Shown piece by piece: positions 2,060-61,161 of a stretch of 64,000 nt of DNA. How positions within the stretch are numbered: position 1 is the first letter of the stretch; every line of letters starts with the position of its first letter. A program made the position numbers and the translations under genes. The notes beneath the pieces are model-generated. The model had not been told where the DNA came from, ran no database searches, and saw nothing but the letters and a program-made list of their open reading frames with translations. The DNA is from Moniliella sp. 'wahieum' (Eukaryota), in assembly GCA_003971905.1 (NCBI GenBank), contig RSEE01000144.1:1-64000 (forward strand). Reading direction: 5' to 3'.

Positions 2060-2903
2060 GAAACGATGACGATGACCAGGATGGTGACGATGACGATGAC
2101 CACGGGGTGACGATGACGATGACCAGGACGGTGACGATGACGAGACGAGGACGAGGACGAGGACCAGGACAAGGACAAGCAGAGCGAATGCACTTGCGGG
2201 GAAAGGTCCGGGTCGGTGGGGCTCCATTATTGGATGTTGGCTTTTGCTTTCGGGTAGTACGAAGCTATGAAGCTATGCGGCTTGAAGCTTGAATGAAGCT
2301 TGAAGCTGGGAAGGTCGACCGGGCCCGGGACGTGCAGCTGGTATGGACATTGTAGACGGGAAAGGCAAGGGGCAAAAAGAGCAGAGCAAAGGGAGGGGGG
2401 GGGGGGGCGAATGAATAGGGAATCCCGTAAATGAGTTGCATAGGAGAAGGAGATGTACTAGCGACCAGGATAACGTTTGTCTTCAAGCTTCAAGTGAAGC
2501 TTCACTGTTGGAGTCCAACTACCGTGGACAGAGAGACGACGTGAAGTGGACAAGCAGTGAACAAGTGAACAAGTGAACAAGTGAACAAGCAGCGAGTAAG
2601 TGGGCACGATGTGAACCTGAGGTGGACATCACGTGGACGACATGCCTGGTGGCTCAGCAAGCCAAACCAAGGTCCGGAAACAAAGGGACCAACACCAGCC
2701 GATGCAACCCCACCCAAAACAAGTCAAATGACTAGTGATTGATCAGTCCCTGCAGCGAACCCTCCATCCCCTACCCCTCATCCCCATCACCCAATCCTCA
2801 GTACCAACAAGGTCATGGGACCCAAACCGCAGCCGGGGGACGAAGAAGGAAGGGCAAAAAAGGACGAGGTGAGACATGGCAAAACCACCGCACCTAGTCC
2901 TAG

Positions 2904-5302
2904 TCATCGTCCTGCAACCGCGTGCCCTTGGTATTGGACCGACCAAATCGTCCGCTCGGGGCCAAACGGGTGAACAACGTGGAGGATGTGGTTGCCGCTT
3001 GCGCCGGGGAGAAGAAAGTTCGAAGGCAAAGGCGGAAGATCTTCGCCATTGCTCGGGCCGGCGGCGACACGAGCAATTGGGCCGTCCTGTCCCGCAGGGG
3101 GGAGGAGTAAGATGGGGTCGGGGCTGGGCGTGGGGCAGGGAACCAACTGCATGTGCCAACAGGCCTGCGCGGTCATCCAGTGCCAAACTGGTTCGGCCCT
3201 CGGCCCCAGGCGCAGGGGACAGTTCGCGCCAGGGAGCCGGGCTGTGGGTGTGCAGCGAAGGGGATAACGTCCATTGGCGAGATAAGCCCCATGGACTGGG
3301 ACTTGGTCCGCGTTCGGCCGGAGGGTGGGCAGCCAAGGCCCACAACGGAACGGGCGTCTCGCTCGTCTCGTCCGTTTCGGCCCGGAGACTGTGCCGCGCA
3401 CGACTGGGACTCGTCGGTGAAAAGTGCAGTCCGGCGGGGGAGGAAGGAAGGACAAGCGAGGTACTGTCGGACAGATGACTGGTGGGACGGAACCCAGGAG
3501 CGGGAGAAGCAAATGCAGATGTGCCGTACTCGTCAACGCTTTCCAGTGTGCTCGGCGCCCGGGCCAGGTCTGTCGTTGCGTTGGTTCGCAAGTGAGGGGC
3601 GGGGGGAGGAGAGCAAGCCAGGACTGGGGCATCAAGCGACGAGCGCGCTTCAAAGTCAGTCCAATGAGCCGAGGTATGCAGTCCACGTGGACCGCGCCCA
3701 GCCACCAAAACGGCCGGTTGGTCCACCCCTCCTCCGCTCCTTCTTCCTCATCGTCAAACGTTGCCCAAGGAGCAAACCGTCGGGGCTTGGGCGCAACAGG
3801 TTGGGGCGCAGGACGCAAGTCCCGTCTCGTCTTCGGCTGTACTTGGCTTGCGACCCGAGGAGGAACGGTGGATCTGAACGGTCACCACACCCGCTAGGAC
3901 GGCACGCTGGTGGTCGTTCAATTCGGGGGTCTGTTGTACCAGCTCATCGGGCACCTCGGCAATGGTCGAAGGAGGGTGAGCATGGCCATCGCGCTGCAAC
4001 AACTTCCCGGCCCATCCGCCCATTGCGGCCCGAGCTCCAGTAGCCGCATCACGGAACGTGCCCAAGGCCGATGCACCCGTAGCTGCGGCGGGAGCATCAT
4101 GCTCCGCGCCTGCTTCCGAGCTGGGAGCCGAGCTGGAGGCCGAGGCCGAGGCAATGGCAGTGGTAAGAGTAGGGGTGGGTTCCGCGGCGAATGTGGATCC
4201 AGCAAGGTCGTCGGTACTGTCCTTGGTACCCTTGAGCTCTTTGGCCTTGGTGGTCTCCTTGGCTGGTTTGGCTTGTTTGGCCTGCTTGGCGTCCTTGCTA
4301 ATTGCCTCGTCCTTGTTCTCCTCCTTGTCTCCGCCCAACAACGGGCACGCACACCCCCAGACGTTCCCCAATGCCCACCCAGCCAACCGGGTGGTCACGC
4401 CTGAATTGACCGAGCGTCCGCGCCGGAGGAAGCGGTCATGGCCGCGCGCGTCTTGGGTACAGCGTTTTTTTCCTTGGGACCCGCCTCTTCCTTGTGCGTC
4501 ATCTCTTCTTCTTGTGTCGAGAGCGGGCGAACAGGTGTCCCCCTCGGCGCCGAGTCGTGCACAACGTCGGGATCGGTCGAAGCGGTAGATTCAGTCCGAT
4601 CCACCCCATTGCTCCCGCCTCCGCTCCATGCGCCCGATACAGAGGAAGAGCGGGCATGCGAGTCGTCGCTAGCCCGGCCCAGCTCGGCTGCACTCGAGTG
4701 AGAACGAGAAAATAAGTGCCGCTTCGGCGGAGCGACAGCAGCCGATCCGAGACCAGAGCAGGGGCACTGTTCCCGCCTGCTGTCGGACTGGTGCGACCAC
4801 CGAGGAACTGTTGGGCAAGGGCGGGGCTTCACCTGTGGGCACAGTCGTTGGCGGAGCAGGTGCCACCTTGCGCGTGCGAGAGGGAGGGGGCGGAGGGGGC
4901 GGCGGGCGGGCGCGCGGTAGCGGCGGCGGGGCGGGGCAGGACGACTTCCCAGGTCGGCGACGGGGGGCAGAGGAGCGAGGGGAGGAGCGCGGGAGGAGGT
5001 GAGGACGTGGCAGTCGGCCTGCCATGGCCAGTTCTGTGCGAGAGGGTGCATGGCAGCGGCGATGGAGGCGGCCCAGTGGAGATGGAGCGGGCGAGGGCGC
5101 GGGCGGTGAGGAGGTCAGAGGCGCCGTCGGCGGTGGTGGCCGCAGCGAGCTCGGCGGCGTAGGTGGTCTGGGCCTGGGCGAGGGCAGCGTGGGTGGAGGA
5201 GAGGCAGCCGACGGCGTCGTGGGCGGTGGGGTCGTTGCGGACATGCAGGGCGGCGAGGGCAGCGCCCAGGGCAGCGACGGGGTCGCCGAGCACGACGGCC
5301 AT
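2904..5302 (-). CDS. Hypothetical low-complexity protein (frameshifted, assembled from overlapping ORFs)
   Basis: A chain of overlapping minus-strand ORFs (4829-5392, 4395-5051, 3754-4398, 2743-3726, 2904-3818) has protein-like composition (MAVVLGDPVAALGAALAAL..., KEENKDEAISKDAKQAKQAK...). No family recognised. Confidence 0.45.
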
Positions 5303-5874
5303 GGGGAGCGGCGGGGAGATGGAGGACGCAAGGCAGGCGGTCGACCAGGGATTGAACGTTGAAAGCAGCGGCAATCGTAGACCATCCATCATTAATCAGG
5401 GCACGCAGTACTCAGTAGGGTTGCCGCCACCGACCCCCCGCGGAGTAGTTACTTAGTAGCGCCCCCACGCGCCAGCTGACGTACACCCCAGCAGCGCCCC
5501 GCGCGTGCGCTCCGTGGCCTCAGGTGCTGTCATTTGTCCGCACAGTTATCCAGCTGTTCACTCACGCTATACAGTCGGTTTGGAAACGAATGTGGATGAG
5601 CCAGAATGTGTGTTTTTTTACTTGCTGAGACAGCATGATTGACTTTCTCACTGGGTGGGCACGAGCTGCCACTTACCCTCAGAGAAGCGAGCCGAGAAGG
5701 CGCATCATTCCTTGTTGGTGCTCAAGTGTGGAAAGGTGGACAAAGGAGCTGATGATATGGATTTCGTTCGCTGGCCCATGCCCATCCCTATCTACCGGGC
5801 GTGGAGAATGCCTGTCTGTGGGGGCTGAGGGGAGGAAGAACGACCGAGGTGGTGATTTGATGGTACCTTCTCCT

Positions 5875-5981
5875 CTCCATCTCCATCTCCATCTCCATCT
5901 CCATCTCCATCTCCATCTCCATCTCCATCTCCATCTCCATCTCCATCTCCATCTCCATCTCCATCTCCATCTCCATCTCCA
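5875..5981. repeat. (CTCCAT)n hexanucleotide microsatellite, ~18 units
   Basis: Direct perfect tandem repeat in the sequence. Confidence 0.97.
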
Positions 5982-6120
5982 CTCCCCATTCTCCTTACCC
6001 TTCTCGTTCCCCTTACCATCCTAGGTCCACAGTAGGGGGATTTAGGCAGGCGGAGGCGAGGGTTCCAAAGGGACGACACGCTCGGACGCAGCCGCCGCCG
6101 GCGCAACATCTACCGCTACC

Positions 6121-7768: not shown

Positions 7769-8785
7769 GGTGGTGCCGAGGGAAACTTGGACGGGGCGGG
7801 GGCGCGTGACGGCAGAAACGTGTCGCAAGAAGAGGAAGGCTGAGGAGGAGAACGGGACGAGGTGAACATGGGCTGCACCCGCCGCGCTGGGGTGAGAAAG
7901 GAGAAGATGAAGGTGAAGGTTTAAGCCAAACCTGACCAAGCTACACTTCACCTGGGATGCCCGTTGGACGTTGCGCGGTGGACGTTGGGTGTTGGTCCAG
8001 CAGAGGAAACCCAAGGGGCGGCAGGTTCCCGGAAACCTAGGTCGGTCCAGAAAGAGTCGATGAGCGCGATTCGGATCTATGATTCGATGGATGATGCCCT
8101 GTGCATGATGCACAAAAAAAAAAAAAAAAAAACCAAACACTTGGCCGTCGCCACCTTCGGCTTCCACGCCATGCTAATCGACCTTACTATATATTGTACC
8201 CACCATCCCCTTACCACTGCCTCGGCTAACGAGTAAGGGAGGGTGAGCGTTCAAGTTCGTTCAAGTTGAACGTTGAGCTTAGATGGTGGGTGGGTACGGG
8301 TTACGCGTTTCGGGGTACGTGTTACGAGGCTGCTTCGCACCAGATCACAAATATTTGGGACGGGTTAAATGATGTATGGAAAGAGAGCGAGAGAACGAGG
8401 GATGCAAGAACATGACGATTGATGAAAACAAACGAGATGGGGGGGAAGGCCAAGAGGATGCAAACTAGAACAAGGGAAAGAACGCCAAAGCCAATGCAAG
8501 CCCAAGAGGAGCGTGAGGGAAACAACCGCAAGCGGCTCGGACGGGCCACAGGCCTCTGACCGGCTGCCATGTAGGAAACCTCATGCGGGGAGTAGAGAAT
8601 GCCGATCTCTTTTTGGGGACAAGGAAGTGCGTGCGTGCGTGTGTGTGAGGGAGGGAGGGGGGGGGGGGGGGGGGGGGGGGGAAGGAGGGTGGTCCATAAC
8701 AAACAAAAAAGAAGATTGATAAACGAAGAACATGGTGGGAAAGACAAAGAAGATGTACGAGTGTGGTGCGGGCAGACCCGGAGGA

Positions 8786-9897: not shown

Positions 9898-12800
9898 GGG
9901 AGAGGGCGGAGGGAGGAGGAGAGGGGAGAGAAAGAGAGAAGAGAGAAGAGAAGAGGAGACGAGGAAAAGAGAGCCGAAGAGCTAAGGCCCTTGAAGCTTG
10001 CAGGCAAGGCAGTGCGGTGGGGGCAATTGCTGTGCCGGCGAAGAGCATGGCTGCCTGCAGCTGCAGCGCAACCCTACCCCCCCACGGCGCCCCTGCGTGG
10101 CCGCGGTGGGCCGAACAAGCAAGGCTGCCTGCTGCCCCCCTGCCTTGCTCCCGCTTGTCCCGCCCGCCGGCGGCCTGCACGGGGGCGCAGCGCCCTGCAC
10201 CCTGGCCACGCAGCCTCTGGCCATGTGCCAGCGTGGCGCAGGACGAGCGTGGGGGGAATCGGCCGATCGCCACCTGGCCAGCACTTGCGAAGCACCCAGC
10301 CCACGCCGCACCAACCGGCGGCGCCAGCCTCCAGCAGCTCCAGCACGCCGCGGCGCCCGCACCCCGCCACTGGCCACCGCCGGTCCGCAGCAGACTGGTG
10401 TGCTGCCGCCCTTGGACAGAGCGAGGGTGGCGGCGGGCAGGCAGGGCGTCGCAGTCCCCCTCGCCCCACGCAGCTGCAATGCGCTCCGGCTGAGCGCTGA
10501 TGCGCTGATGCATGGTGCGTGCGTTGAATGCCCTTGTTTTTTGCCGATCGGCATGCGTACCTTGTGGGGGGCAGCGGGGGGGCAGTGTGCTGCGCTTTGT
10601 GCCCTGCGCAGCCACGCAGCAACCCTGTGCCGATCGGTCGGGCTGGCTGAAGGGCTGAACCGCTGAAGCTTGCAGCAGCCTCGTAAGTAAAGTGACCGGT
10701 GATCCGGGTAGGTAGGCACTAGTAGTACTCGGCGCATCGATCCAGTTGGCCCGGGCGAGCGGTGGGCAGCATGCTGCTTGCTCGCGAAATCATGCTTTCG
10801 CATGTGCTCGTCTGCACATCCACAACTATCTTGCGTCCACCTGGGTCATCAGCACGTCATCAGCATTATCATCGTCATCGCCACAGGCCTCAGCCTCATC
10901 CACTCATCCACGCGAACTCCTCCGCCTCGTCGATCATCGACCCATCCACCCTCCCGTGCCTCCCACGATTGGCGCCGCTGACTGGCAGATCAAACAAATC
11001 GACAGGTCCTGGGGAGCGATTAGTATTCCCCTCAGCGGTGCAGTCACCACACACTTCCGATGGGCATTGTCTTCGCCACTGCATCTGTGGAGAGCACTGT
11101 GGTACAAGCTTCGGCTTTCGATCCCTGGCCTGCGCCGCGCGAGGCACACCCTGGCACATCGCTCATCATGCATCACTGTGCGGCACATCCATGAATTGTC
11201 CATGCGAATGACACAGATTGGCCTCAACACCTCGCCCCGTACGCTCAGTAGTACTCTCCAAAACGCTCAATCCACTACAGCCACGGCGATACTACCGGCT
11301 GTAGAACCAAGGGGTGGCAATTTGGCATTGAAGTTTGAAGCAGGTGGCATGTGTGACATGCTGTGTGCATGGCAAGTTGTGAAGCTTGAAGAGTTGACCG
11401 ACAAGCCGGAGACCCGGTGACGCCGGAACTCCAGCAGACACTACGCCCATCTGCATCAGACAGGCCTGCAGGGGGCAGCCCGGCCAGCCCATACTTGGGC
11501 ACACTGGCGCTGAGCAACGCAGACGAGAGGGAGGGAGAGGGGCACTGGGCGCTCCCAGACGCATCCTGCTACGGTTGAAGTTCGAGCTTCTCAGACGTTC
11601 AAGAGGACAATGTCCTGTTGTTGACCCGCCACTTAGTCACCTGACGCTTGGGTTGCGGAATACCGCATACCTCCGGGTACTGCTGGTACTTGCTAGGTAC
11701 GAATTGCTGGTGGGCTCCATTGCGCCCAATACCAATGCCGTCTGAATCGGATCTTAGATTTCAGACCTGAAACCGGACTTGGGCGTCCGTTGACGACGTG
11801 GACGCTGACGGTTTGCGGTCTGCGCTCAACACGTCAATCCGGCCTTTGCGCCGCTGTACCCATCTCCCCCACCGAGGTTCTGGCCTCCGAGGAGAGGCTG
11901 TGGCGCCACACTGGTGAGTGGTGGCGGTCACCGGTCACCGGTCACCGGTCACCCAAGCGCAGATTCCTTCGGTGCATTCCTTCCAAAATTCCTTGCTGGA
12001 GGACGGAGGAATATTCTCTCTAGCCTCTCTGTGTAGCTCGTGTACGACGCAATCCACACTGGTAACTGCCTCAACTGCCTGCTCTCTGGCCTTTTGCATT
12101 GCCAGATGGAATGCAACCCCGAATACCAGCAACACCTGGCAACACCAGCCACCACACCTGGCAATTCCCTCTGAGATTAGAGATCCCCGTGGCCCAAATT
12201 CGATCCCCACAAACGCGCAACGCCCAACTCATCTCTGCTTCGCAAGAAGAGGGCGGTTCTTTTTCGTTTGAGCAAGAAGGCAAGGCTCAGCTGAGCTCTC
12301 AGCGACGCTGACTAGGCTGACTCGACGTCCAACGGTTGAGTTCAACTCTGGGGGGCTACATCGGCTTACGTACGTCGACGACGCTTGGGTCGGCCGCCGC
12401 AGCCGAGACACGCAAGGCCGCCCCGGCGCTCAGGCCGAGGAGGGGAAGGAGGTGGGGAGGAAAGTCCTATATCCTAGTTACTAGTTCTGGGAAGGGGATG
12501 ATGCATGATGTCGAATGGATGATGGACGGTGCAATGGTGCATGATGCATGATGCATGATGTCAGAGAAACACGTCATCGAGGTCAGCTCGATCATCGATC
12601 ATCGATCATCGAGACTCCTCACCTTCTGCTGCCCCAGCGCCGGCCTCAGCCTCAGCCCCACACCTCCCAAACACAGCGGTGCTGGGGCAGGATGTAGGAG
12701 TGGGTGGGTAGCTGGGCCCGGGAAGGTCGATAGTCGATGGTCAGTGAAGGCATGGGAGATGGCATGGGAGATGGCTTGGGACGACAGGGGCGCTCTGCTC

Positions 12801-13483
12801 GTCGGCCGAGGGGAGGGAAGACTGGTGCGGGCCGGGGCGTAAGCAAAGTGTCTTTTAAGATCTAAACCCCAGGTGTGGCAGGCTGCTGTGGCTGGTCCTA
12901 TACGTCATGCATCGTGATGCATCATATCACATCTCTCGTCTCATCGATCTCATCATCATCCCATCTCCCGCCGTCCCCCAGCCACCCCAGCCACCAGTCC
13001 GATCGAGCGCGCGCGCCGTAGCCCTCATTCGGCGCACGGGCCGCACGGCCACAGACAGGCTCTGTCCAGCGTTCAAGTTCAGCTCAGCAGCGCTCCGCGA
13101 GCGCTGGGCACGTCACATGTCGGCACCCCAGCGCCCAGCAGTCCCCGTCCTGTGACCTCGCCTGCCGACAGTGGTACCGCGCCAGGCCGGGGAAGCGAAG
13201 CTGCTGGGAACGGGAACGTGCGATGGGGCAGCTGGCGCAGCTGGGGCACGTTCGCCGAGGGACGGGCCTGGGAAGAAGCCTGGCGCTCGCCCCATCCTGC
13301 GCTTGAGAACTAGATTCTCGCGCTTGAATTCAAGCTTGAAGCTTCAATTCAAGCTAGCTCTGCCCAACTTGTTTTCTTCCCTCGTGTGCGCCTTTCGTCC
13401 CCACTGGTCACCGTGGCTCTTCGTCTTTCTTCTCCTCTCCACGACCGCTCCCACCACTTTCGCTGGCGACGCGCATCCCAACC

Positions 13484-15234: not shown

Positions 15235-15672
15235 CTAGTCGGCTTGGACTTGTAGCAACGAAGCTCTCGCCCCAGCTGTCCATATTGAAAGTAACCAGTC
15301 CCTCGCCGCTGCAAAGGTACCAACCCCCGGCCCCGCAGTCTTGAAGCAGAAGAGGAAATTCAGACTTGTGGTGAAAGTGGCGGAGGCAGAATACCGAACC
15401 CCACAGACATGCAGGAGGAATGGTGCACTGGGGGCAACCTGTAACGGTGTGGCCTCCCGGGCGATGACAACCTCGCCCGACGGGGGCACAAAGGGGAGCC
15501 TGCCCTCTGGCTCGTCAGGCAAGGGGACCAGGTGTAGGCCCGAAGCACGAGCTTCGTACCCAAGAGGCGTCCTCCCCTCTGCCTTCCTAGCGATAGCGTT
15601 CCTAAGCTGAGTCCTGGAGAAGGCGGCGCTGAGGGTGGACGTAGGACAAGACGATTGGTCGCTTGCCTCCAT
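15235..15672 (-). CDS. Possible small orphan ORF (145 aa)
   Basis: True ATG at 15672 and TATATAAA about 25 nt upstream on the minus strand. Contains one copy of the 58-bp duplication. No homology recognised. Confidence 0.25.
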   Translation of the reverse strand: MEASDQSSCPTSTLSAAFSRTQLRNAIARKAEGRTPLGYEARASGLHLVPLPDEPEGRLPFVPPSGEVVIAREATPLQVAPSAPFLLHVCGVRYSASATFTTSLNFLFCFKTAGPGVGTFAAARDWLLSIWTAGARASLLQVQAD

Positions 15673-15965
15673 GCATTCTTAGTACAGAGCGGGTCTTTAT
15701 ATAGGCAGGCAAAGGCCCGCAAGTCGTACAATAGACAAGCGGCCTGACTGTGGTCTGTTGGAGACCACGCGGCTGATGGCTCCCGCCGATCTGCACGCGC
15801 GGAACATCGGCGATCGAACTGATTAGAAGCCAAGAGCGAACGATAAGCAGCGGCGGCGCCAACGGAAATATTTCCGGTGGCTGTGCTGCGCATCGCCCCG
15901 TGACATTAGGCAGAATACCGAACCCCACAGACATGCAGGAGGAATGGTGCACTGGGGGCAACCTG
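15384..15965. repeat. Exact 58-bp direct repeat (15384-15441 and 15908-15965)
   Basis: AGGCAGAATACCGAACCCCACAGACATGCAGGAGGAATGGTGCACTGGGGGCAACCTG occurs twice, 524 bp apart. Confidence 0.95.
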
Positions 15966-17209: not shown

Positions 17210-18061
17210 GACGACTAGAGCAGAACCAAGGGGTCCAGGGTCAGCCAACTGCCCTGTCCGCATGGTCGGTCCAAACGAGGGAGGGTCTTCAGCTCTGGGG
17301 CCGGGCAGCAAGCGTGCGTGAGCATGCTTCCGCGCGGGGCACGGAGCACAAGGCACGCTGCGCCCGGCGCAGCCCTCGACGTTGTTCCATGCAGAAAAGG
17401 ACTTACCACAGGTGGATGGGGGCTGGAGGACAACAAACCGACTGCCAGGCTCGCATTCCCCAGGTGGAGCCAGTCGGCACAGCAAGCCGGAAAGCGAGAG
17501 GCGGAATAACGCCCCCCGCACGGTAACACTGTGCCCCGCCGCAGCTCGGCGTAATCGTATGGTTAGGGTTGGCGCGTCCCTTGCCACGCGCTGGGACGAC
17601 ACTTGCAAGTTTCCTTGGTTGCAACTGCAAGAATCACATGTCACATGTCACACTCGAATACGTAAGCACATCGCCGCCGCCAGCCTCAAGTGTCGCGTGG
17701 ACGTGACGCGTATACGACCTCTGTGTTGCTCCACCGCCAACCGCATTTAACCCGTCTTTTACCCATGTCAGACGTACGTCGCCGTTTTTTCTACAGCGAC
17801 ATGGCGAACTGACTATCTTGCTTGCCCATACCACACTACCTACCCACCGCGCGCTTGCCAACTAGCGTGTCTGCCAGCGCTGCCAGGAACCTGGCCACAC
17901 ACTCAAAACATGCCCGCACCCGATTGCGTCTTTGAACGAGGATCCCAAGCCTGACGCCCCCCTCAAGCCTCAGGTCCTGCACCTGTCGTTTCCAACGCCA
18001 AACCAGGCAACACTGTACGTTCGCGCTCTCCCTTTTCCTGTCTCCCTGGCTCCTTCGCCCT

Positions 18062-18132
18062 CATCCACGCATCCACGCATTCCCGCATCCACGCATTCCC
18101 GCATCCACGCATTCCCGCATCCACGCATCCAC
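18062..18132. repeat. Tandem repeat of alternating 8-mers GCATCCAC/GCATTCCC
   Basis: Visible tandem array in intergenic DNA. Confidence 0.9.
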
Positions 18133-19003
18133 TGACCCAGCCACGTAGCCTGCCCTTCGCCGCAGCTGCATTCGGTGCATGAAGTTTGGCCATACCTCGG
18201 CCACGTGCCCCATCCGGTTGAGAGCTTCTTTGGAATTGCTCTCGGACCGAAACCGGCCCCATCGGCCCCGATTGCGACGAAAATGGTCGGCACCGGATCC
18301 CGCTCGAGATCATTCTGGATCCTACTCTTCCTGACCCGTGCTAAACGCTGAACCGCTGAACGCTGAACGTGCTGAACGTTGAACGTTCAACGCTGCGCGT
18401 TGGGTCGTTGGCGTTGGATTGAGCACGCATGTGATTTTGTTTTCCCTGGTTTTCCTGTACGTGGCGTCTTTCGTCGACATTTCACTTGAGGCCTGAGGGT
18501 CGTGGACTTTGATCAATCCGTAAGCATTGTCCAGTGGTTGTGTAGGGTGGAGAGAACGAGGTGGCACGACGAAGGAGCGTGGGGTGAGCAACGTGTACCT
18601 GGTTCGTGCTAGTAGCCGGCCAACGCAATCATTAATCACACAGGTTCGATCGGATGATGTATGTGTTGACCGGGAGGTCCGAGGGCCAATCACCTCTAAG
18701 CCACATTGACCTGGTCCCTTCTCACACATCAAACGCGCTGAACGCGCATTCGATCGGACTCGCTCGGGCCTCAGACTGGTCTAGCGCCCGAGCCGTTCTT
18801 CTCCTTCTTCTTCTTCTTCTCCTCTTATTCTTCCTGTCCTGGGCCTAGTCCCGCATCCTGTCTTCGAACCATCACCTTCAGCCTCTGTTGTCCATCAGAT
18901 TTGCTGGGAGACGTAGGCCATAGTATGAACGTATGAACGTAGGAACCGCTGAAGCTGAAGGTTGACTTCAACTTGAAGCTTGTGAATATATGCATGTGAA
19001 TCT

Positions 19004-19036
19004 TGAAGCTTGAAGCTTGAAGCTTGAAGCTTGAAG
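19004..19036. repeat. (TGAAGCT)n heptamer array, member of the dispersed T[CG]A-N4 family
   Basis: TGA at 19004, 19011, 19018, 19025 and 19032, each separated by AGCT. Confidence 0.95.
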
Positions 19037-21312: not shown

Positions 21313-22479
21313 TCCACCTCAAGCTCGTCGAATCGTCGTGCTATGGCTGTCAGTTTTTGTTGAGTCGACGCTGGTTTCGTCCGATTCAACACGGCCATCT
21401 CTTTTCCCCCCTCCCCCGTCCCCCCTCTCTCTTTCTCGGCGTTCATCTGCCCCCTGCACTTTCTCTTTGTACTCTGTACTACCTCTCTCTACGTTGCTTT
21501 GGAAATGGAGGGTATCCCGTGTGACATGTAAAGAAGCGATGCCTACGCACGATGCAGTGTTCTTTTCTCACAGTCCTATTGTTGGTTGTTGGTGACATGA
21601 GTTTCACGTTGATCGATGGACACTCTGTTAGTTTGCGGGCGTAGTAAAGCGCATGTAGACAAAATCCCTCCGCATCAGCGGTTGGATGTACCTTGCCGTT
21701 TTGTTGTGCACGATCATCGATGTTCTAACTGATACCGTCAATGCAGGCGTGTCGATCGTGTTGGTAGGCTGCCAGTGTTACTAGTTGCTAGATACTGGGG
21801 AGGGCTGCTACTGGAAGCTGAGCTTGGCTTGCTTCAGCTTCACTGCCCTATTCCAACTGTCGGTGAGTTGGGCTTGATTCCCAGCATCTGACATTCTCAG
21901 GCTTCTCGACAGCGCCTGAGCCTGAGCCGGAGCCGGAGAGCCGTCGGCTGCCTGTTCCCCACGCCACTGGCCAGCGTGGCGGGTGACCGCACTAATGATC
22001 GGTGATGGGCTCTGGCCCCAGTGTGCAAGGAAACGCGCATCACGTGCAGCACGCGTCAGCGCAGTGCTGTGGCTGGGGTCATGCATCATGCATCATGCAT
22101 GGCGCTGCACTCGGACGGCAGTGGCGCCGTGCCGCGCGCGCGGATCGAGCGGCGCGCGCGGGGGAGGGGGCAGTGTGGGCGCGGTGCACGCCGTCTGTGC
22201 TGGTGCGGGCGCGTGCGGATGGGGCGGCGGGGCGGCGGGGCAGGACAGCAGTGTGGCAGCAGGCGGCCTCGCGCGCGCTGCGCCGCCCGCCCGTGCGGCA
22301 GGCCGTGTCTGGGGATGCAGGATGCGCCGGCAGGCCGTGACGCGTGACGGGGGGTGACCAGTGAGCTAGTGACGAGCCGCTGGGGAGCCATCCAGTCCCT
22401 ATCCAGTCCGCCTGCACCCGCCAGACATTCTGCGCTGCCTCGCCTGCGCCGCTGCTTGCCCACCACCTCCTTCCTCCCC

Positions 22480-40364: not shown

Positions 40365-40634
40365 GGGTGGTGGTCAACGTTCAACCAAGCTCCGTGGTGT
40401 GTTGGCCCGCCGCCGTCGAGGTGCGATGGTCGATGGGGGGCGCAGCCGCTGCTCTTGGCGGCCAGGCGGACAGATTGAAACATTGCCGCAGAACCGCTGG
40501 TTGCTGTCGAGCCGAGTCAGACTTCCGCCGCCTGCTGTTCCGCCCTGCCGAGGCGCGTAGCGTAGCGTGAAGCGCGGGGTGGCAGTGAGTTGTGGTCCAG
40601 TGGCCAGCGCTGTAACCCCCGCCCGCATCCCACC

Positions 40635-41519: not shown

Positions 41520-43550
41520 TGGGCCATGCATCCGCAGTGGACCTGTGTGTGGCAGGGCATATCAAATCCTGCCCTGTCCCAAGAACCGCGGGAAGAACTC
41601 TTTTGAGCTCAGCTCGCGATGAAGGGGGGGGGGGGGGGAGGGGCTGCAATGGTGAGTCAGGAATCTTTTTCCAGCCTTCGTGCCAACGTTACGATCACCA
41701 ATTTCCTTCTTCGGCTCCCAACCACGCCCCATTCTCGCTGCTGGAAGCCATCGGGCTCAAGCGCGCCTCCCTGGTCGCTCCTGAAGCTGGATCCAGGTTC
41801 GTGGCTACTATGGCTGCCGCTGACTGCCACCAGCCGCCGTACTGTCCCCATCCTACCTCCGGTTCTTGTAGGTATGAGTAGGGAAATGGTGAATGAGGAA
41901 GATGGACACTCCCTGTTAATGCCCAGTGTCCTGAACGAGGCATGCGACCGGCTGAGCCCCCTCTCCGATCACCCGGCATTTGGAGAGTACCAGATATGTT
42001 ACCATGTTGTGCATGTTGGCTACTATTTGAGCTCAAACTGAGTACCACGCCCCCAGTTGTAAGAGACTTGCGGAGGCGGGGTCGAGTGAATGAGCGATGA
42101 GCGATGAGCACTCTCTGGTGAGTCCACGCCCGATCTACTCCACCAGTCTGGACGAAGGTAGGATGTGGCAATGCCTGTTAGTGATTAGGTTTTGGAGCAC
42201 AGCCGCGGCTTGACGGTCAGCTTTCGGCCTGCCTCAAGGAGCGCCCATGCCCCATCTACATTGTGACATGACAGGCAGACGCGGAGGTGCAACTTGAGTC
42301 GTGGAGCCCAGTTCAACAGTGCATCCGGCGGTAATAGATTTTTATTGGCCTGCTACAGTCCCCTGAACGTAACCCCATTGCACCTACCAGTCGCCTCCCC
42401 TCTGTACCCTTCCCACCTCAGTCGATACTATCATTCGTCCGTCATTGCGAGCGAGACGGCTTGATCTGCGCTTGCGTGTGCGCGTATTGCTTTGTGGCTG
42501 GAAGATACGGGCAGCGTGTTTCCCTCAAGTGCCAATGCCACATAGCTAATCGAAAATGCCGGTAACAAGGTTCCGGATAGATATGTGAGGACTACGTACG
42601 AATTCAAGGTGGGCAAGGCCCACAAGATTGTGCACCAGAAATTTCGATTAGCCATGCACAAAAGAGTGTATTTCTTCACTCCATTTTAATCTCTGCAACC
42701 ACTTCTTTCAGTATTACGGTATCCAAAAGACCACATCTCTACCCAGGAGCATACCGACGATGTAGACATCGCAATGCCGGTGGTCGACCTCACTTGGGCG
42801 TCAGCCGCATGAGGCCGCACACCTGTGCCCCTCACATAATTTCGGTGGCTCAGGGCCCTCTTCTTGCACGCAGCATGGGGAAGATGTCAGCGCAGATATC
42901 GGTCGCAGTGGAGCCCTCCAGCCGCCAACCTGTGTGTCTTTTTGCTTCCACCACCGCCCTCGACTCGACACGCTCCTCCTCTCTCTGCCACCCACATGTA
43001 TACGCCCTGTTGTGGGTGGTTAAAACGTTGTTTGGCTACTGTGAATGCAAACCACGAACGAATAATCCTATGCGCCATGCCACAAACGCTCGACCAGCTG
43101 GAACCGTTCTTTGGGGGGGTTCGTCTCGCCACCGGTACTTCTCAAGGAGGGAAGGACGAAGAAGCCCGGCCCCCGTGCGGCGGAGGTGGTGAGTGAATAA
43201 CCGTGATACAGTGATGCGAGTGATGCAACATGCATTTGGCAAGGCAGAACATGTGCCCATGCGAAGCGTGTGATGCAAGTGACATGTGATATGAGCCAAT
43301 TTCCCCCCCCCCCGGAACCGGACGCGGGTGACGTCATCATCCCCCCGCTAATGTATGCTGCGAGAAGTCACTAATCTAAAACACTCCAAGAGATGCGATG
43401 GAATTTTCACACGCCATCGGTTATTGGCGCCACAGGACTTCTGTTTGGGTTCGTAATAACGCGTAACGTACGTTCCTACGTTCGTTGTCGACCTGAGAAC
43501 CAACCCCAGCCCACCTTGTTTTCTGAGCTTCCCGCGTCGCACCGTCCACG

Positions 43551-43597
43551 TCAAGCGTCACGCGTCACGGCGTCATGCCATCATCCATCATGCATCA
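43551..43597. repeat. TCA-N4/N5 periodic array with mixed spacers
   Basis: TCA at 43551, 43558, 43565, 43573, 43581, 43588 and 43595. Confidence 0.85.
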
Positions 43598-45195
43598 ACC
43601 ATCCTCGTGTGTCCTCTCTCTCTGCCCCCCACTGCTCGGGGTCCAGGGAGGGCTGAATCTGTCATGCATCCTATTCATCCATGACGTCACCGATCATCGA
43701 TGCCCTCCCCCCTCCTCCAATAAGCTCCACCCCAGCATCCACACACTGGAATTCCACACCTGTCGAACTTCTGATAAGGCTGGGGTTGCCGGTTGCCACC
43801 CAGTACCCATTTCCAAGGGCCAGCGTGGGCCCTGCTGAGCGATGACACAGATGGTGGCGGCGCGCACAGCGCAACACCCTATACTGCATGAAGCATGTGC
43901 ATGAGATGCATCGGGGCTGGCCACTCGCAGGCCTAGGCCCTCCTAGCCTGCCCTATGATAGACTTCCAAGGCCCACGTATTGTGTGGTGGCCTAGCGTGT
44001 GGAGAGGGTGCCGGTGAGGGAAATGGGGAAAGCTTTGTCCCGGCCCGTGGGGGGCAGCAGACCCTACCCGATCGCGTTTCCAGAGCTTGTGGAAGCGCTA
44101 AGGCTGGAGAGTACTCCCAGTACTCAGACTGAGTGTCCTTCCAGGCCACTGCACCATCTATGGTATTGCCACCTGGCGCCTGTCCCAGCGGGCTCAGCCT
44201 GAGCGCTCACATGCTCACAGCGATGGCCTAGCCCCACGGTATTTTTGCGTTGTAACATTAGCATGTCAACCAAATGGATCGATCGTTCCAGTTACTGCGG
44301 TTATCGAGTTATCGGTTACCATTGCCCACAAAAGTTGATTACAACACACAGTGAGCGCGGGGCACGGCAGCCGAGAGGTCTGGCCAACCGAATCGGAGCG
44401 TAGCGCTGCGCGACGGATGCCAGGAGCTTCTCTGAGCGCTGCGCTTACTGGCGCCCACAGCGGCAGTGGCAGCCATCTGGTGTGCATGGACCACACGCCA
44501 CGGAGGCAACATGGCCTGAGCCTGAGCCTGGCGGGTTGCTGCCCACGCTGGACCTCAGGTTTTCGGTCATCGAGGTCTCATCGTCATCTCTCTCCCAAGC
44601 CGACCCGGGCGGGTTAGTACTTGAGTACTCGAGTGGCCTGCCCCGTACCCACCCGCGACCGGCATGGGAAGACCAGCGGGGGCACCCGGGTGGTGCCGGA
44701 GCCGTAGCCGGGGCAGCCCGGACACGGGCCGGGGCAGCGGCAGCGGGTGGGACGAGGCAGCAGGGCAGCCGCTGGCTGCCCCCCCGCCTGCTCTGACGAC
44801 CGGGGAGAGTAGGGTTGGGTGTGGAGTGTTGAATACTGCGTGGGGCCCCCAGTGCCCGGTGCCCCGAGCGGCTCAGCTGCCTCAGCGCGATTGGCGCTGG
44901 CCAGACGTTGGCTGGGTCCGATCGGGTGGCACGACCGGTCACCGGTCACCGGTCATCCGAGCCTGGCCGCACGGGGACAGTCGTCCCCCCCGGCCGCCCC
45001 GGCTGATTGTCTGGGGCCCCGGCCAGGCCAGCGCTTTCGTGTGCGACTGCATGGGCTACTGATAGCGGGGGGTATATATATACCGCCATGCCTTTCCCCC
45101 CCTCCTTGGCGTGTATCCCCCCTCTCTCCTTATCGCCCTTGATCCCAAGCTCTTCTGCCCCCGCACGCCCCTCTGTCTTCCCATCGTGATCCCAA

Positions 45196-45610: not shown

Positions 45611-46654
45611 GCCTCGTGTTCGGTTCCCGTGCTTCTACCATGTTTTTCTCCTGCCGCCCCCCCCCTTCCCCCGGATGTACAAGTACATGTTGCTGGGGTG
45701 GGCGTCCAAGATCGTGTTCTCGCGCATAATACGTTTGAGTGAAGCGTTGCCCTTGTCCTTGCTCCCCTTGTTTCTGCTCTGCTTGGGTGTTGCTTCCCTA
45801 TGCCTTCATCTCAATTTATCTCGGAATCGCATTGTTTGTGCAATGGACGGGTGGGATAGTCTTTCCATGGTCTCTTTACAGAATGCTGTGGTGTAAGTGC
45901 AGTGCCATCCATCGCATGACCTCGCACGGCATCTCGTGGCATCGCACGGCATCTCGTGGCATCGCATGGCGTCGCATGGCTATAGCATGCCATGGTACGC
46001 TCCGATCCCCCGGCACAACGCACTCTGACGCCCTACCTCCCACCTTGTTGCTACGCGCCAGCGAATCTACGGACTACGCACATGAGCAGACCAAAGGCAC
46101 AGGGGCAAAAATAAGTAAAACTAGCCAGTGGTTGGCAGAGGGGACAAAGGAAGAATTAAGGAAGGTGGGATTAGGACCGCGGCAGGCGGCGGGGAAGGAA
46201 CGAGAGAGACAAGGGAAGTAGTGGGTAAGTATGGGTATGATGAACACGTGCAGAACAAAAAGAGAGTAGCGGGTCTGTGCGGAGAAGGGTGGGAAAAGGC
46301 CGGGGAAACGCGCCGGGACCAGGACAGGGACAAGGACAGGGACAGGGAAGGAACGGTAACAGAGCACATCCGCATGTCACCAGCCGTGCCGTGCGACACG
46401 GTACACGGTGGTACAAGGAACAGTGAATGCTCGCATCAAACAAAAGCCCACAATGGGAGCGGGGTTGGCGCCCAACCCAGCATGGACCGAGGTGCGATGG
46501 GACGGCAGGGGTGGGGCACTGGCGTGCAAAGGGGGGTGGAAGACATGGTGCGGATAGGGCGGGGGATGGGGTGGGAAGTGGGGCGTAAGGACGGGGCCGC
46601 GATCGCGAGGAGGCCGCGTTGGGTGTGGCGTGGTGAGAAACGACCTTGGCTGGG

Positions 46655-47860: not shown

Positions 47861-50385
47861 AACGTTGTGTTGCTTCTCATGCGGCGGGTGGCGTGGGCGG
47901 GGCGGGGGGGGGTAGTGTGTGCTGCCGAGGAGGAACGAGGGCGAATAAGCTTTCCTGTCCCAATTTCAATTCTGCAAGCGGCTCATTGGCGTGACGCGTG
48001 ACGCGTGACGCGTGAAGCGCGTGAAGCTTGGCGCTTGGAGCTGCAAGCGGGCCGCTGGACCCTGGGCGCTGGATCTAACGCGCGTCCCCCTTCCACCAGG
48101 CATGCATAACCAAACATTTCGTTCCTGCATCCGCTGCCATCTGTTACGTAACCCGCCGCCACGCCCTGCTCCTTCGCTTCGCTTCCCTTGCCCACCACCC
48201 ACGTTGGGCCCCCATGGGTGAGTACTTGTGGCCGGTACGTCCTCTGCCCCCCCCTCGGTGGTGTCGGCGGCCCCGTGCGCTGACACGTCCAGGTACGCCG
48301 ACATGGCGTTCGGCGTGGCCACGGCGCCTTTGCGTACATCCTGTGGGAGCGCGAGCCCTCCAGCCCCCCCTCCCAGCCGGGCGGCCGTACCTTGGCCGAC
48401 TTGTTGCAAGGAAGATTCGGCGGCCCACCTCCCGGCCCTGCCCAGGCTGGCCAGCAAGAGACAAAATGACCCATCTTGTTCGGTTGCAATTCATTTTGCC
48501 AATGCCCTTTGTTGAGTCACCGGGGGGGAACTCGTGCGCTGAGGAGCCAAGGGTTCCTTCAGGCCGTCTCTAGGCCTAGGAGCTGCCCTGTGTTCTCACT
48601 TCTGTTGTACTCGTCCGCACCCAGGTCCGGGGGCCAGTGGCTTGTTTAAGGCTTGTTTTGATGTCGCTGTAGGTGTCGTTGGTTAGGCTCTAGGGCAGGG
48701 TGGACCTTGTTTTTGGCATGCCCCACTAGCATGCGGAGGGGATCCGTCCTTTTAATGCAGGCCAATGTTGATGATCCGAACTCCTCCATCAGGCTGGAAC
48801 GCAAGGTACATAGTCCTCTCCTGGCTTTTTCTCCAATGCGATAGTAACGCACACGTAGCGTCGGGAGAGTGGGAACTCAGCTTTGGTGCTGTTCCAGCGG
48901 TTGTTGCAATGTTATGGTCATTCTTCGTCCGTGAGCGACATGTTCATTTTTTTTCCGGAACTTGCTGACCTCTGTCTAGGAACGTGTGCGGGCGCTGAGT
49001 ATATGTAGAGCGGCATCGTTGAGATCGTTCCGTCGACGTTACGTGTGTGCTTGCGGGGGCCACAGTTTCCGATCGATGTTGCTGTTGCGGTCTTTTTTCC
49101 TGCTCCATAGTACACTATGGTGCCCACAGTTAAGATACCGCATTTGCGTCTCGTCAAGATCAAAACGACTATAACGATCTTTGATGATCATTACCCGGCG
49201 TGCTTTCTCCCCCACTTCATCTCATTCCTTTCCCCGATTCTCACCGGGGCGTTGGTCCCGCAGTGGCCCCTCTTCGCGCGGGGGGCGGGGGGCGTATACC
49301 ACAGGGAGGCACGGATTCTACCTGTTTGGTGGCACCTTGCGGGGTGGCCCCAGTGAGGGCCCTCGTTCCCGCGGTGGCACCAACGACCATACTATGACTT
49401 TCCTAGCACCGAGCAGTTAACTTCCAGTGGTCTCAGTTCATTCTATGGTGACTCTCCGGTGCAGGCCACCCGCACGTATTGCAAAACAGTTGGCGCTATC
49501 GCCCTGGGTATTTTCTTTCCTTCCCCGAGACTAGGAGCAGTGTGGGAGTTTCACTGAGCATCTGCCTGATACTCCCCTCCCCCGCAAATAATAGTACACT
49601 TTGCCTAGTCGCTTTCTTTTGCTTCCCTGTCAACCCTCCTATTCGTTTCCCGTCCGAAATACACCATTGAAACCTCATCAATCGTCATTGATCGTCAGAC
49701 CCAGGTCAGAGCAAGCCAAATCAAGTCCCCGGGGGTTGGGGCGGGGTATTGGATGAGCAGGCACGCGCTTCTTGGCTGAGCACCGGGCTCAGCGGTAGTA
49801 CTGTAGATACGGATGTCGAGGAGCTGAGAGCTGAGAGAGAGAGCAACAGAGAGCGAGACAGTGGGCACAGGATGGGGTGGCAAAGCAGGAGAAAAAGCCA
49901 GAGGTCGAAGGATCCTGGACCAGCCAGAACAGAACCGAAAAGAACAGGAAGAGGAAAAGAGAAAACGAAATCAACATGCCAATTATCCAGTCATTTTTCT
50001 TCGATTCTTTGCTCTAAGTCAAAACCAAACAGTGGAGAGAAAATCGCTGTGGGGGAAGTGTCACGAACATGAACGTAACATCCCTATGAAGGGGCATTGT
50101 AGAATGCCCATGGTACGTCTCGTTTAACGCCCTTTTCCAGAACAGATGAAATTCACAAGAAAGATCGGCCATGGCCGTTTGACACCTACCGATTCAGTGA
50201 TCGTGCCTCTCATCCCCGAAAGACATGCGATCCGTGGATGGGAAGAAAAAGTAACCAAAGACAAAACGAACGAGGGTAGGATGGTAAGCTGTGGAGAGCA
50301 CGTCGTATCCGAGGCCCCACCCACCCCCACATGCCGCGGCACGTGCCCCCCCCCCCCCCTGCTCCCCCATCAAACCGAAAAGAAG

Positions 50386-54333: not shown

Positions 54334-55136
54334 GGCGGCGACGAAGGAAGGGTGGCGGCAAGGCGTGGAGATGGATGAGGAGGAGGAAGAGGGGCAGACG
54401 GATGGAGAGGTGATGTGCGGAGGACTTGGGATTGAGGAGAGTAGGAACGCTGCGGCTCGGATGGACTACGAATGGGCGCAGCAACAGCTACGTGCTAATA
54501 CACCGTCATAGGAGGTACGAAGTATATATACAACACACGCAGCCATCATCACTCGCTGCGCCAGACCGGCGCATCTGCTCTGCCCTGCTGTGCCGCTGTG
54601 GCGGAGAGTTGGGACGGATCCAGAAGAGGCAAGGGTTTTCGGATCCCTCACTGCCAACACAACCACTGTTTGGAGTGGCATATGGGACTCTATCGTATAT
54701 CATCCATCGTGTGCCTGCCACATCTACACGTCGCGGTGGGTTTGTGTCGAGCCGTGCTGCCGCCTGAGGCCCTCTGCTCCCGAAAGGGGAATATGCTTCG
54801 TCATGGTTTGCTCAGAAGCCTGTTTAACGTTTATATGGGCATCGCCATCAGTATTTACTTGTCGGGGTCTAATGGCGGCCCATATATAGTTAGTACATAT
54901 GCAGCGTTCATACGCAGCCTTGAGTTCAAGCTTCAAGTCAGATAAAGCTGATCCGAGTCCCGCTTGCATCGGCCACAGCACATATATGCCCTTTGTGGTA
55001 CACGAGATCCACACACACCGCTGCTAGTATATTCTCTCAACATAGCACCAACACAACTTAAAAGAAAGGGACGAAGAAACGCTGCGCCTGTGTGTCACAC
55101 TGGATGCCAGTTCGCGCCAACCCATTCAGGAACCCA

Positions 55137-55368: not shown

Positions 55369-57143
55369 CAGGACACTACCTCGTTGCCCGCATGCTCCCC
55401 TATGCCCCATTTTGCCCTTTCTACTAATTACTGTGCCATCTTGCGCTGCCACATCTCCCCCACGGAGCACAGGTACCCGTCGTAGAGAGCCCCGCCCTGG
55501 CTATGTCTCCAAAACGTTCCTTCCTCGAGGAACCCCACCCTCCCCCTGTCGAAATCGACTGGACTACGTCTCTGTCATACATTCCGCTGCTCTTCCCGTA
55601 CCACTGGACAATGGTCGTTGTTTTATTGTGTTGGTACGAGACTGCTATATGACACAGCAATGCGAAGAGACCGCAACATATTAATATACTCTTTCTTGAG
55701 CACGCTCCATGGGGGGCACATCTGTTGCCCCACCTTCCATAATACAGCTAGTTTTGTCGACAAGCCTGCGGCCAAGGCTGTTGCGGAGAAACTGGAGAGC
55801 GTTATAACCGGATAACCCTCTCCTATAACTGAAGCTTTACGCCGAGAGGAAGGCCCTTCACAGTCCCTCCGAAACCCTGGGGTTACCCTGCACACAGGAG
55901 CTCTGCTGTTTTATATCAATTTCTCGCTTCTGTAATATGACTTTCCTTTTCTTGTTCTAGAGTTGGGCGCGGGCACTGGCTCGTTTGATACCGCTGTAGG
56001 TGTGGCGGATTGACAGAGATTGAACTACAGTCGCCACCACAAAGAGTCTGCACCCCCTCAAAATGAGAGAGGGCTATCATCTTATTCTCCAAGACCTCAA
56101 CTCATCCTACTACGGGTGTTGCCGCGGGTGTGACGCTGCAATATGCGTGGTCACACACAGTCCACCCCCCCACCCCTTGTCTGTCCCCTTGCCTCTCTGC
56201 GTATAGTGGTGTGGATTATAGAGGACAGGGACAGCAGTGCAATGTCGTGTGCGAAAGCCTTCATAGAAAAACAACGGTGAAGCACGAGTATGGGAGCGCT
56301 GAAGTACACTGTGAACTGTGACCCTGTGAGAGAGTGCCCACAGCTGATTGGCAGCCATCAGCTCTGCAATTTCTTGCGTGGCGCTGATTTCGAGACACAG
56401 AAATGCCGATGGGTGCGCGCGCACGATAGTCCCGGCGCGCCCTCCGTTCCAATTGGTATTATAATAGTGGCTGCGAGAGGGTTGGGCAATGGGGCAGACC
56501 GAGGGCCCGAGGCGGGCCGAGGAGCGGAGATGATGATGGTGCCCCCGTCTGGGTTGGACGTTGTGCTGTTGGGGGCGCAGAGAGGGAGAGGGGGAGGGAG
56601 GAAGTGTAGTGGCACAAAAAAAGAGAAGAGCGACAGTTTGAGTTGGCCTGCGGATGGCTTCCAATCAAATCACTGGGGCTGGGGGCTGTGTGGGAGCGGC
56701 GATAGGAGTGGGGCTGGGCAGCATAGCTGTCGCCTGGGCCTGTGTTTGGCTGGTTGCCTTTGCCCCCCCAAAGAGATCCCGGGAGTGATGCATGATGGAT
56801 GATCAGGATCGCCACCCGGTGTTATCCCCGCCAGGGCCGCTGCACGGAGGCAGTGTGGGGACAGCGGAATTAAGCATGCTGCCCGCCTGCTGCGGGCTGG
56901 GGCCCTCGCCTGCTGCTCCACCCTCGGGCACCGGCGGCGGCGGTGCGGCGTGTGCGCGTCCGCAGTATAAGCGAGAGGACCGCATTCAGCTTTCCGTACG
57001 GGCTCTGCTGATTCCCGTGGGGGCAGCTGGCATGTGCCGCACCAATCGTATAAATCCACCCGCCCACGTGGCGCCCAGCCCACCTGCCCCGCCCCCACAC
57101 CCTCCCTCCCGCACCCCCTCGTCTTCCCCGCCACCGCACCGCC

Positions 57144-60100: not shown

Positions 60101-60682
60101 CGGCCGTGTCGGGGCGATGAATACGATCATCACGACGCGTGCGGGCAAGGACTTGGTTTCGTCGCTGTGCTCGGGCCTGTTGACAATTGGGTCGCGGTTT
60201 GGGGGTGCGCTGGATGATGCGGCGATTGAGTTTTCCAAGGCGTTCGATGCCGACTTGACGCCGCGGAGTTTGTCGACTCGATGCGCAAGCAGCAGCGTCT
60301 TATCCCAGGGATTGGGCACAAGATCAAGTCGTTGCGCAACCCAGACCAACGGGTGGTGCTGGTGGTGGACTATGTGCAGAAACACTTGCGCTCGCACCGG
60401 CTGTTGGACTATGCGCTTCGTGTGCAGGAGGTGACGACGGCCAAGAAGGACACGCTCATCCTCAATGTGGATGGGGCGATTGCGGTGGCGATGGTGGACA
60501 TGTTGCGCGACTCGGGTGCGTTTACGGCGGACGAGGCGCAGGAGTACATTGATCTCAAGTTCCTCAATGGCCTGTTTATTGTGGCTCGGTCGATTGGGTT
60601 TGTGGGCCACCACTTGGACCAACGCCGGCTGCGCTCGGCGCTCTACCGCCACCCGGGCGAGGACATCTTCTACTTTTCCTAA
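57144..60682 (+). CDS. ACL1: ATP-citrate lyase, single fused polypeptide
   Basis: [145 protein letters not shown]. Introns at ~57157-57225 and ~57536-57611. Confidence 0.97.
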
Positions 60683-61133
60683 GCAGCGATGGGGGGGGCG
60701 GGGGCGGTCTGGGTATGGCTGGGCCCGCGTGGTGAGGGGGAGGAGCAGAATGGGATCCGAAGCGTTCGAGTATGAGCTGCTGGCTATATAACTCTTCTCG
60801 ATCTTGGCCTCGATGCTCGGTGTGGATGGGGGATGGCATGAGGACAGACATAGTTGTTGGGCATATCCTGTCACGTGGCCGCGTTGTGACTTTGGTTTTG
60901 TCGGCTGCCCCACTTGGCACCACTCGGGGTTAGAGCGGCGCGGAGGCCGGCGCGGAGAGGCGGGGGGATGGGGTGTTCCGTGCATGCGAGGACGCGCCAT
61001 ATGGCCTAGGAGGCGCCACGGTGGGCAGGCGCGTGCAGCAGGCAGCGGATGGCGATGGGCATGGCGATGCAGGCGCGCAAGATGGCATGCGGCATGTGGG
61101 GGCACATGCGCACACATGGTCCGCTGCTTCCAG

Positions 61134-61161
61134 TCACATGTCACGCGTCACCAGTCACCGG
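61134..61161. repeat. TCA-N4 periodic array with four different spacers
   Basis: TCA catg TCA cgcg TCA ccag TCA ccgg. Confidence 0.85.

Follow-up and report, generated by a model that had tools for sequence, protein, structure and literature searches.

Period-7 TNA arrays in the intergenic DNA of Moniliella sp. 'wahieum' as probable scars of a sequence-selective mutational event

Most long intergenic regions of the window analysed here, the 64,000-nucleotide stretch at positions 1 to 64,000 of contig RSEE01000144.1 of Moniliella sp. 'wahieum' (assembly GCA_003971905.1), carry short arrays in which a T-any base-A triplet (TNA) recurs every 7 bp around a mostly palindromic 4-base spacer. We conclude with high confidence that these arrays are scars that have built up from a mutational event which is both sequence-selective and ongoing. 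In its dominant form the site pqTxA becomes pqTxA q'p' pqTxA, so that two inverted bases and a direct copy are added, whatever the x and the spacer. The process has single-base geometry, acts on either strand and is still changing the genome, and arrays are built by repeated hits at one site together with ordinary slippage after two units exist. Our comparisons establish the substrate, the product family, the polarity of gain and the removal from coding DNA.

The insertion rule and its products

A preliminary description of the window had reported T[CG]A triplets at 7-bp period, and the motif was present at all 18 coordinates that it printed, although the entries at 2283-2307 and 2483-2504 turned out to be out-of-phase pairs of two-unit dyads rather than continuous 7-phase arrays. 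Its observations of a 7-bp period, of mostly palindromic spacers and of no comparable arrays in conserved coding exons were borne out in the window, where the arrays are also enriched. We counted 22 overlapping matches against 1.52 ± 1.32 in 100 dinucleotide shuffles, and 16 arrays of at least three T[CG]A at period 7 against 0.36 expected from 25 order-4 Markov simulations, as compared with 6 against 0.84 at period 6 and 3 against 1.08 at period 8. A palindrome was enclosed by 52 of 91 TSA-N4-TSA pairs (S being C or G) versus 2.8 of 33.9 in controls. None of the 48 TxA-palindrome-TxA dyads lay in the coding DNA called by a self-trained hidden Markov model (HMM), which makes up 38% of the window; the model recovered most window genes, missed some and mis-stranded one piece. 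Across the assembly (69.5 Mb, 223 contigs) four-unit matches numbered 7,521 per strand, against 1,554 for the reversed pattern, a control count that is probably inflated, as CTAG and GTAC arrays would match it too. We estimate 70,000 dyads in the assembly, or about 10 per 10 kb.

In 264 kb, the words enriched around a 4-base palindrome were TGA..TGA, TCA..TCA, TAA..TAA and TTA..TTA; the middle base was the same on both sides in most dyads (G 113, C 93, A 23, T 21), and mixed G/C dyads, which are perfect inverted pairs, numbered 29. The TSA-N4 frame first proposed therefore holds for TCA and TGA, but the middle base may be any base, identical on both sides. Likewise, the spacer does differ between loci, all 16 possible palindromes occurring, yet it is not free, being copied from the two bases beside the array. 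Only the 4-base spacer is enriched, with 301 of 556 palindromic where 35 were expected; 2-base spacers (period 5) matched expectation at 38 of 153, and 6-base spacers gave 9 of 284 against 4.4.

Periodicity extended two bases beyond each end of an array and then fell. Isolated dyads (n = 152) matched the flank on one side in 95 cases, on both sides in 23 and on neither in 34 (odds ratio 0.36, p 0.003), and it was this one-sided match that gave the rule stated above. Mixed arrays arise because hits fall on opposite strands: an opposite-strand hit would use the other flank and leave two different palindromes. Among 13 adjacent pairs of unlike palindromes, the first spacer equalled the left flank in 8 and the second equalled the right flank in 10, where chance is 1 in 16. 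Beyond the core, no base preference stood out in 230 oriented fixed scars.

The general product is p q T x A y1 y2 becoming p q T x A, then none to two of y1 y2, then q' p' p q T x A y1 y2, with the 7-base form dominant. In 601 kb, excluding sites that were already palindromic 7-mers, the counts for k direct bases past the A (k = 0 to 6) were 275, 53, 43, 0, 0, 0 and 0, as compared with 3/2/2/0 (k = 0/1/2/3) at ANT, 15/8/6/1 at GNC and 12/7/2/0 at CNG control cores. Since k never reached 3, duplication extends to nnTNAnn at most, a unit whose symmetry centres on its middle base. The inverted run was two bases long in 751 cases, three in 11 and four in 5. Eight polymorphic loci of 8-9 nt fitted the variant forms, and two 10-nt events had inverted bases on both sides, one of them (contig C1, 58240) lying inside an existing dyad and being ambiguous. 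Plain 7-mer duplications centred on TNA, net of palindromic sites, were no commoner than at control cores. Bare 2-base insertions of palindromic (P) bases without duplication were rejected as a class, with 1 at TNA versus 0, 4 and 1 at control cores.

Haplotype comparisons and the binding-site reading

Contig C140 is the second haplotype copy of the window, and C55, C38 and C10 are the copies of C1, C9 and C47, at 91-96% identity; the four pairs give 316 kb of alignment. An indel was counted as isolated only if its 12-base flanks were gap-free with at most 3 mismatches, which kept 115 of 140 at 7 nt. Isolated indels of 5, 6, 7, 8 and 9 nt numbered 48, 54, 115, 30 and 24, with a peak at 7, and among indels longer than 3 nt that separate the haplotypes the rule-type insertion is the most frequent class. 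Exact fits to the rule accounted for 54 of the 115, fits with one mismatch for 19 and non-fitting indels for 42; shuffled inserts fitted 0.16 times on average and at most twice. Thirty-six of the 54 are diagnostic, not being exact tandem copies of the short allele, and all 36 were still T-x-A when any core was permitted. The window contains four of the diagnostic sites (8320, 11164, 18627 and 46083).

As regards direction, the 7 bases were missing in the other haplotype at 19 of 124 rule-type sites versus 7 of 524 other 5+2+5 repeats, so that generic slippage deletion is insufficient as an explanation. In repeat families with at least three other aligned copies, the scar was the minority state for all six distinct scars, the clearest case being an insert in one long terminal repeat (LTR) copy on C38 that is missing from 20 close copies. 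Gains exceed losses, and the minimum event rate is 52 per 7,610 non-coding TNA sites versus 3.9% substitutions per base, the latter figure being inflated by assembly errors. Selection clears scars from coding DNA, which holds 1 dyad per 114,667 bases; intron-or-gap sequence holds 1 in 5,407.

Hairpin-forming short tandem repeats expand by slippage, and the arrays might be no more than slippage microsatellites enriched for hairpin-forming units, an origin that we consider very improbable. The remaining 18 of those 54 events double as exact tandem copies, and the same palindrome stands in 66 of 175 adjacent spacer pairs, which indicates that slippage probably lengthens arrays. It cannot, however, make a first dyad from a non-palindromic site, and the 36 diagnostic events hold two bases without a direct source, which contradicts slippage as the origin of that dyad. 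Moreover, the other symmetric cores (ANT, GNC and CNG) show a small excess at most, and a nearest-neighbour model, itself blind to triloop sequence, gave TNA loops no energetic advantage. We give next to no credence to an artefact of error-prone long-read sequencing or assembly. The haplotype alignments do contain many frameshift-type errors, with 1,991 isolated 1-nt indels, but the single dyad in all the coding bases stands against 10-21 per 10 kb outside, and many scars are common to both haplotypes and decayed by point mutation.

Two readings of the arrays had been offered at the outset. A lineage-specific expansion mechanism is supported and can now be stated as an exact rule; cooperative binding is not supported, and we hold it improbable that these are selected arrays for a general regulatory or chromatin factor reading TNA at 7-bp spacing. 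Some observations do favour such a factor. On the rough HMM annotation upon which the gene-position figures rest, dyad density peaks in long divergent spacers, at 21 per 10 kb versus 13 in tandem and 10 in convergent ones. Dyads also cluster locally, and they are scarce within 500 bp of coding ends beyond the scarcity of other indels (7 vs 45 for new 7-base events, 105 vs 220 for other indels, p 0.005). Over the four haplotype pairs new events are about four-fold rarer near genes and other indels 1.3-fold, a scarcity that could be due to chromatin or to selection. Against this, dyads are hypervariable, their columns showing 6.8% substitutions and 20% gap columns between haplotypes, versus 3.6% and 5.3% in other non-coding DNA and 5.1% and 6.5% in an ascertainment-matched control; conservation below that of the surrounding sequence speaks against a binding code. 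Dyad density at 400-1500 bp from gene ends is the same on the 3' and 5' sides (3.9-4.3 per 100 TNA), the spacer is copied from the flank, every one of the 16 palindromes is used, and scars, new ones included, are found inside LTR copies. We caution that motif finders will call such scars regulatory motifs.

How the scars may be made

The chemistry to which we incline, with reserve, is a staggered cut with a hairpin end. A dimeric, transposase-like enzyme would cut nnTNAnn with a 7-nt stagger, one end would be sealed as a hairpin and opened two bases off its tip, and end joining would trim the other end by 0-2 bases, mostly back to the A. The enzyme may need no element, or may act while a rare element inserts and excises in hit-and-run fashion. 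A symmetric 7-nt staggered cut would give the symmetric 7-bp ceiling, with its stop at y2, and the T..A core; opening two bases off the tip would give the fixed 2-base inverted run even with an unpairable 3' end; and the k = 0 form would dominate because of one base of microhomology at the A. Artemis, when opening hairpins, has a +2 preference.

Flank hairpins, host opening and end joining are known for hAT, Transib, MULE and RAG, according to PMC5499845. The footprints of hairpin transposons (hAT, Transib, MULE/Muta1) and the P nucleotides of RAG described there share with the scars a direct duplication, a symmetric core, short palindromic junction bases and variable trimming of one end. Direct duplication here has a fixed maximum around a symmetric target (275/53/43/0), and P bases come from the flank end (the 36 diagnostic events and the 751 two-base runs). 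The scars differ in being far more uniform and frequent, with inverted bases almost always one-sided, and in that no element or matching transposase was found among the searches made. hAT families with 7-bp duplications exist, as PMC4455052 records; the unit here is likewise 7 bp, with a TNA core, but hAT was unmatched under a silent control.

Several findings weigh against hairpin chemistry. No resident element with terminal inverted repeats (TIRs) and an nnTNAnn duplication turned up in the ~1 Mb sampled (1.5% of the assembly), where the scan returned 5 nnTNAnn matches, mostly the arrays' own symmetry, and 1 and 4 for control cores; inspection of haplotype-specific insertions showed solo LTRs or unclassified sequence. 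The transposase search covered eight families, Transib/RAG1, P, piggyBac, Kolobok and Dada being among those outside it. Profiles of DDE_Tnp_4, MULE and DDE_3 were unmatched in the genome while positive controls were detected; hAT dimer, DUF659, KDZ, DDE_1 and Plavaka were also unmatched, a weak result in that their controls were silent too. The only cut-and-paste transposases found were two lone CMC/EnSpm-type loci (Transposase_21) with TIRs undetected, and CMC target duplications are 2-4 bp. The event rate is very high for transposition. Finally, the full inverted run is kept nearly always at one end, fixed sites with full runs on both ends numbering 0 for (4,4) and 2 for (3,4), and this one-sidedness exceeds the expectation for two free hairpins.

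The CMC/EnSpm-type loci lie at L298:2759-6372 (contig C34 of our assembly, G000) and at L297:3100-5900 (C17), the latter with an allele on C62 (L299). The C17/C62 pair is more diverged than the neighbour gene and looks decayed, and a weak search for a longer homologue of the C17 piece gave none at E <= 1e-10. The C34 locus has long open frames, its TIRs were not found and its partner haplotype is missing from the assembly; as a source of the activity it is a lead only. An 81-bp repeat beside this gene (L298:2389-2469), present hundreds of times, is probably the terminal part of a long interspersed nuclear element; we rejected it as an element source because its ends vary and it lacks a 7-bp duplication. 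Also rejected were three-frame stop cassettes of TGA/TAA at period 7 (TAG has no period-7 peak, and a palindrome would be needless), Tc1-like footprints with element-end bases (the spacer derives from the flank and not from a fixed end, and DDE_3 is unmatched) and a PIF/Harbinger 3-bp duplication (unable to duplicate pq, profile unmatched).

A variant without any mobile element, in which a host enzyme, possibly a domesticated one of transposase type, cuts nnTNAnn and leaves hairpin ends, seems to us doubtful and quite unlikely. Each TNA site would on this view be hit at about one fifth of the per-base substitution rate, and the enzyme, if real, would be a standing germline diversifier of intergenic DNA and a RAG-like junction writer without signal sequences.

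The scars could also be a micro form of the small inverted triplication (SIT), made by fold-back of a host 3' flap or 3' tail, a strong rival that we judge less likely than the hairpin route. A nick two bases 5' of TNA would be followed by a strand-displacement extension of 5-7 bases and a flip to a 3' flap, whose terminal A would pair with the T; the first two bases would be copied, ligation would take place downstream, and the 7-nt loop would escape repair. Such a route matches the product base for base, requires no element, and accounts for the one-sided inverted bases and, by the pairing of A with T, for the dominance of k = 0. Self-extension of a hairpin 3' flap and its ligation to the downstream fragment are described in PMC13202174, and PMC13334657 names this as a route to DUP/IN/DUP products. 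According to these two sources, the SITs and 3'-flap alternative duplications of rad27/FEN1-deficient cells share with the scars the order direct, inverted, direct (DUP/INV/DUP; here pqT, Aq'p', pqT), and folding back and ligating would yield the same product as here.

Flap fold-back leaves unaccounted for the TNA selectivity, the abrupt end at y2 (no case with k >= 3) and the 2-base run with an unpaired 3' end (k = 1, 2), and the two events, one ambiguous, that have inverted bases at either side also speak against it. So do the lack of strand polarity by region (over five distance bins the same-orientation fraction was 0.40-0.58) and of a transcription-strand bias of events. The 3'-flap alternative duplications were reportedly defined in a 2021 paper. 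Published SITs have medians of about 148/160/148 bp, a 30-bp spacer, a 6-bp junction and a broad spread, have their breakpoints at Okazaki junctions or nucleosome midpoints and depend on rad27 loss, according to PMC13334657. The scars, by contrast, are ~20-fold smaller, of fixed length (7-9 nt), sequence-selective and germline-fixed by the tens of thousands, and the genome that carries them has a gene labelled FEN1 by its motifs.

By their motifs we take the repair genes present to include FEN1, RAD2, EXO1, the ERCC4 family (two ERCC4-domain genes, of XPF/Mus81 type), Pol X, Ku and DRMBL, with a putative FEN1-like gene in both haplotypes (C19 and C14); MutS paralogues are present as well, among them MSH3, whose label was compared with solved structures. 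The presence of FEN1, the ERCC4-domain genes, Pol X and MSH3 counts against flap fold-back, and repair-gene loss was rejected as a cause, no loss being seen among the genes just named. One pair each was found of FEN1, RAD2 and Pol X, and five copies of MSH6-like genes.

Local foldback inversions at yeast HO breaks share with the scars very short inverted templated insertions and a finish by end joining; they differ in needing 10-bp inverted microhomology and a 41-nt loop, in measuring 5 to >150 bp and in having no fixed direct duplication (PMC11724301). The process described here resembles a hairpin footprint or a miniature inverted triplication and lacks a defining feature of each. Text searches, with most subscription journals and supplements outside their scope, found no published description of the pattern, nor did a text search support a supposed 7-bp intergenic repeat of Ustilago maydis; the cut-and-repair process behind the scars is apparently undescribed. 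It leaves a natural germline mutational signature with single-base geometry, gives birth to short repeats by a rule other than slippage, and provides a polarisable clock for non-coding DNA in this lineage. With substrate and product exactly defined, the enzyme can be hunted genetically and in extracts, and a nuclease that cuts TNA with a 7-nt stagger and leaves hairpin products would, if real, be new biochemistry.

Features of the window and its surroundings

The features of the window are as follows, with + or - for the strand where one applies.

2281..2305: two AGCT dyads, 11 bp apart
2481..2494: AGCT dyad, both arms present, identical in C140
2729..2745: three-unit array, CTAG plus a decayed spacer; C140 has one unit more
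8265..8276 (+): ACGT dyad, left arm
8320..8326 (+): target site TG-TTA-CG, empty; 7-base insertion in C140, exact rule, not a tandem copy
10489..10509 (+): GCGC dyad, then an 8-base variant (one extra direct base)
11164..11175 (+): filled site CA-TCA-TG-CA-TCA; empty site in C140
11926..11953: CCGG array of four units, missing in C140
12307..12322 (-): 9-base variant, full 7-mer duplicated plus 2 inverted bases
12499..12612: cluster of dyads and arrays of TGCA and TCGA; C140 has a different number of units
13330..13346: AGCT array with orientation switch; C140 has one unit more
17634..17652: CATG array, upstream of an RPS7-like gene
18340..18395: degenerate ACGT/ACGC array, including a 9-base variant (18362-18377)
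18627..18638 (+): filled site AA-TCA-TT-AA-TCA; empty site in C140
18997..19066: AGCT array of six units, plus a 9-base variant (19051-19066)
22079..22097: TGCA array, shorter in C140
22336..22349: CGCG dyad
40374..40385 (-): ACGT dyad, the same in C140, lying a few bases before a start codon
42091..42107: GCGA array, a plain 7-mer repeat centred on TGA, non-palindromic
43457..43597: cluster of a TAA-type CGCG dyad with CGCG and TGCA arrays
44206..44313 (-): two 8-base variants (44206-44219, 44300-44313)
44937..44955: CCGG array; C140 copy point-mutated
46081..46087 (-): empty target site; 7-base insertion in C140, exact rule on the minus strand
47990..48026: CGCG array of four units, 9-base variant at its end
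54822..54937: TTA-type ACGT dyad and an AGCT dyad
55804..55817 (-): 8-base variant, TTA type
55856..55862 (+): empty target site CT-TCA-CA; two inserted units in C140
56786..56802: TGCA array, upstream of the ATP-citrate lyase gene
61134..61157: mixed array CATG / CGCG / CCAG

The window's ATP-citrate lyase places the fungus among the basidiomycetes of the smut lineage, its closest named relatives being those of Tilletiaria anomala (84%) and Violaceomyces palustris (83%), with three further proteins at 90-93%. One region of the assembly is present as three syntenic pairs, C1/C55, C9/C38 and C47/C10 (L001-L020, L041-L074), which are 91-96% identical in nucleotides within a pair and 68-85% between pairs in coding DNA. 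Dyads occur in all three diverged copies at 7-18 per 10 kb, so the process either predates this coding divergence or is common to the copies. The three pairs and the uneven gene copies suggest a heterozygous dikaryon that underwent an ancient triplication and lost genes, although the sample may instead have been mixed. Conserved genes of the window (RPS7-like, Trp-tRNA ligase and ATP-citrate lyase) carry many single-base frameshifts that differ between haplotypes, which points to an unpolished long-read assembly.

Arrays of 7 bases of CAAGCTT type, often degenerate around CAAGC, were seen in 19 viral contigs of 37-47% GC (L101-L119, from IMG/VR) and at least 121 metagenome loci (L176-L296). 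They use AGCT alone, no other palindrome in these loci rising above background, and are a separate phenomenon; viral contigs gave no relative locus, and look-alike windows were not found. In the window itself, two solo-LTR-like insertions (15440-15905 and 18664-18922) are missing from C140 and have at least 25 and at least 11 related copies in the assembly. Long hexamer microsatellites (TCTCCA, TGTACC, GTTGTG and CTTCCA) occur in spacers, introns and one coding stretch (5866-6014, 13855-13968 and 25089-25174).

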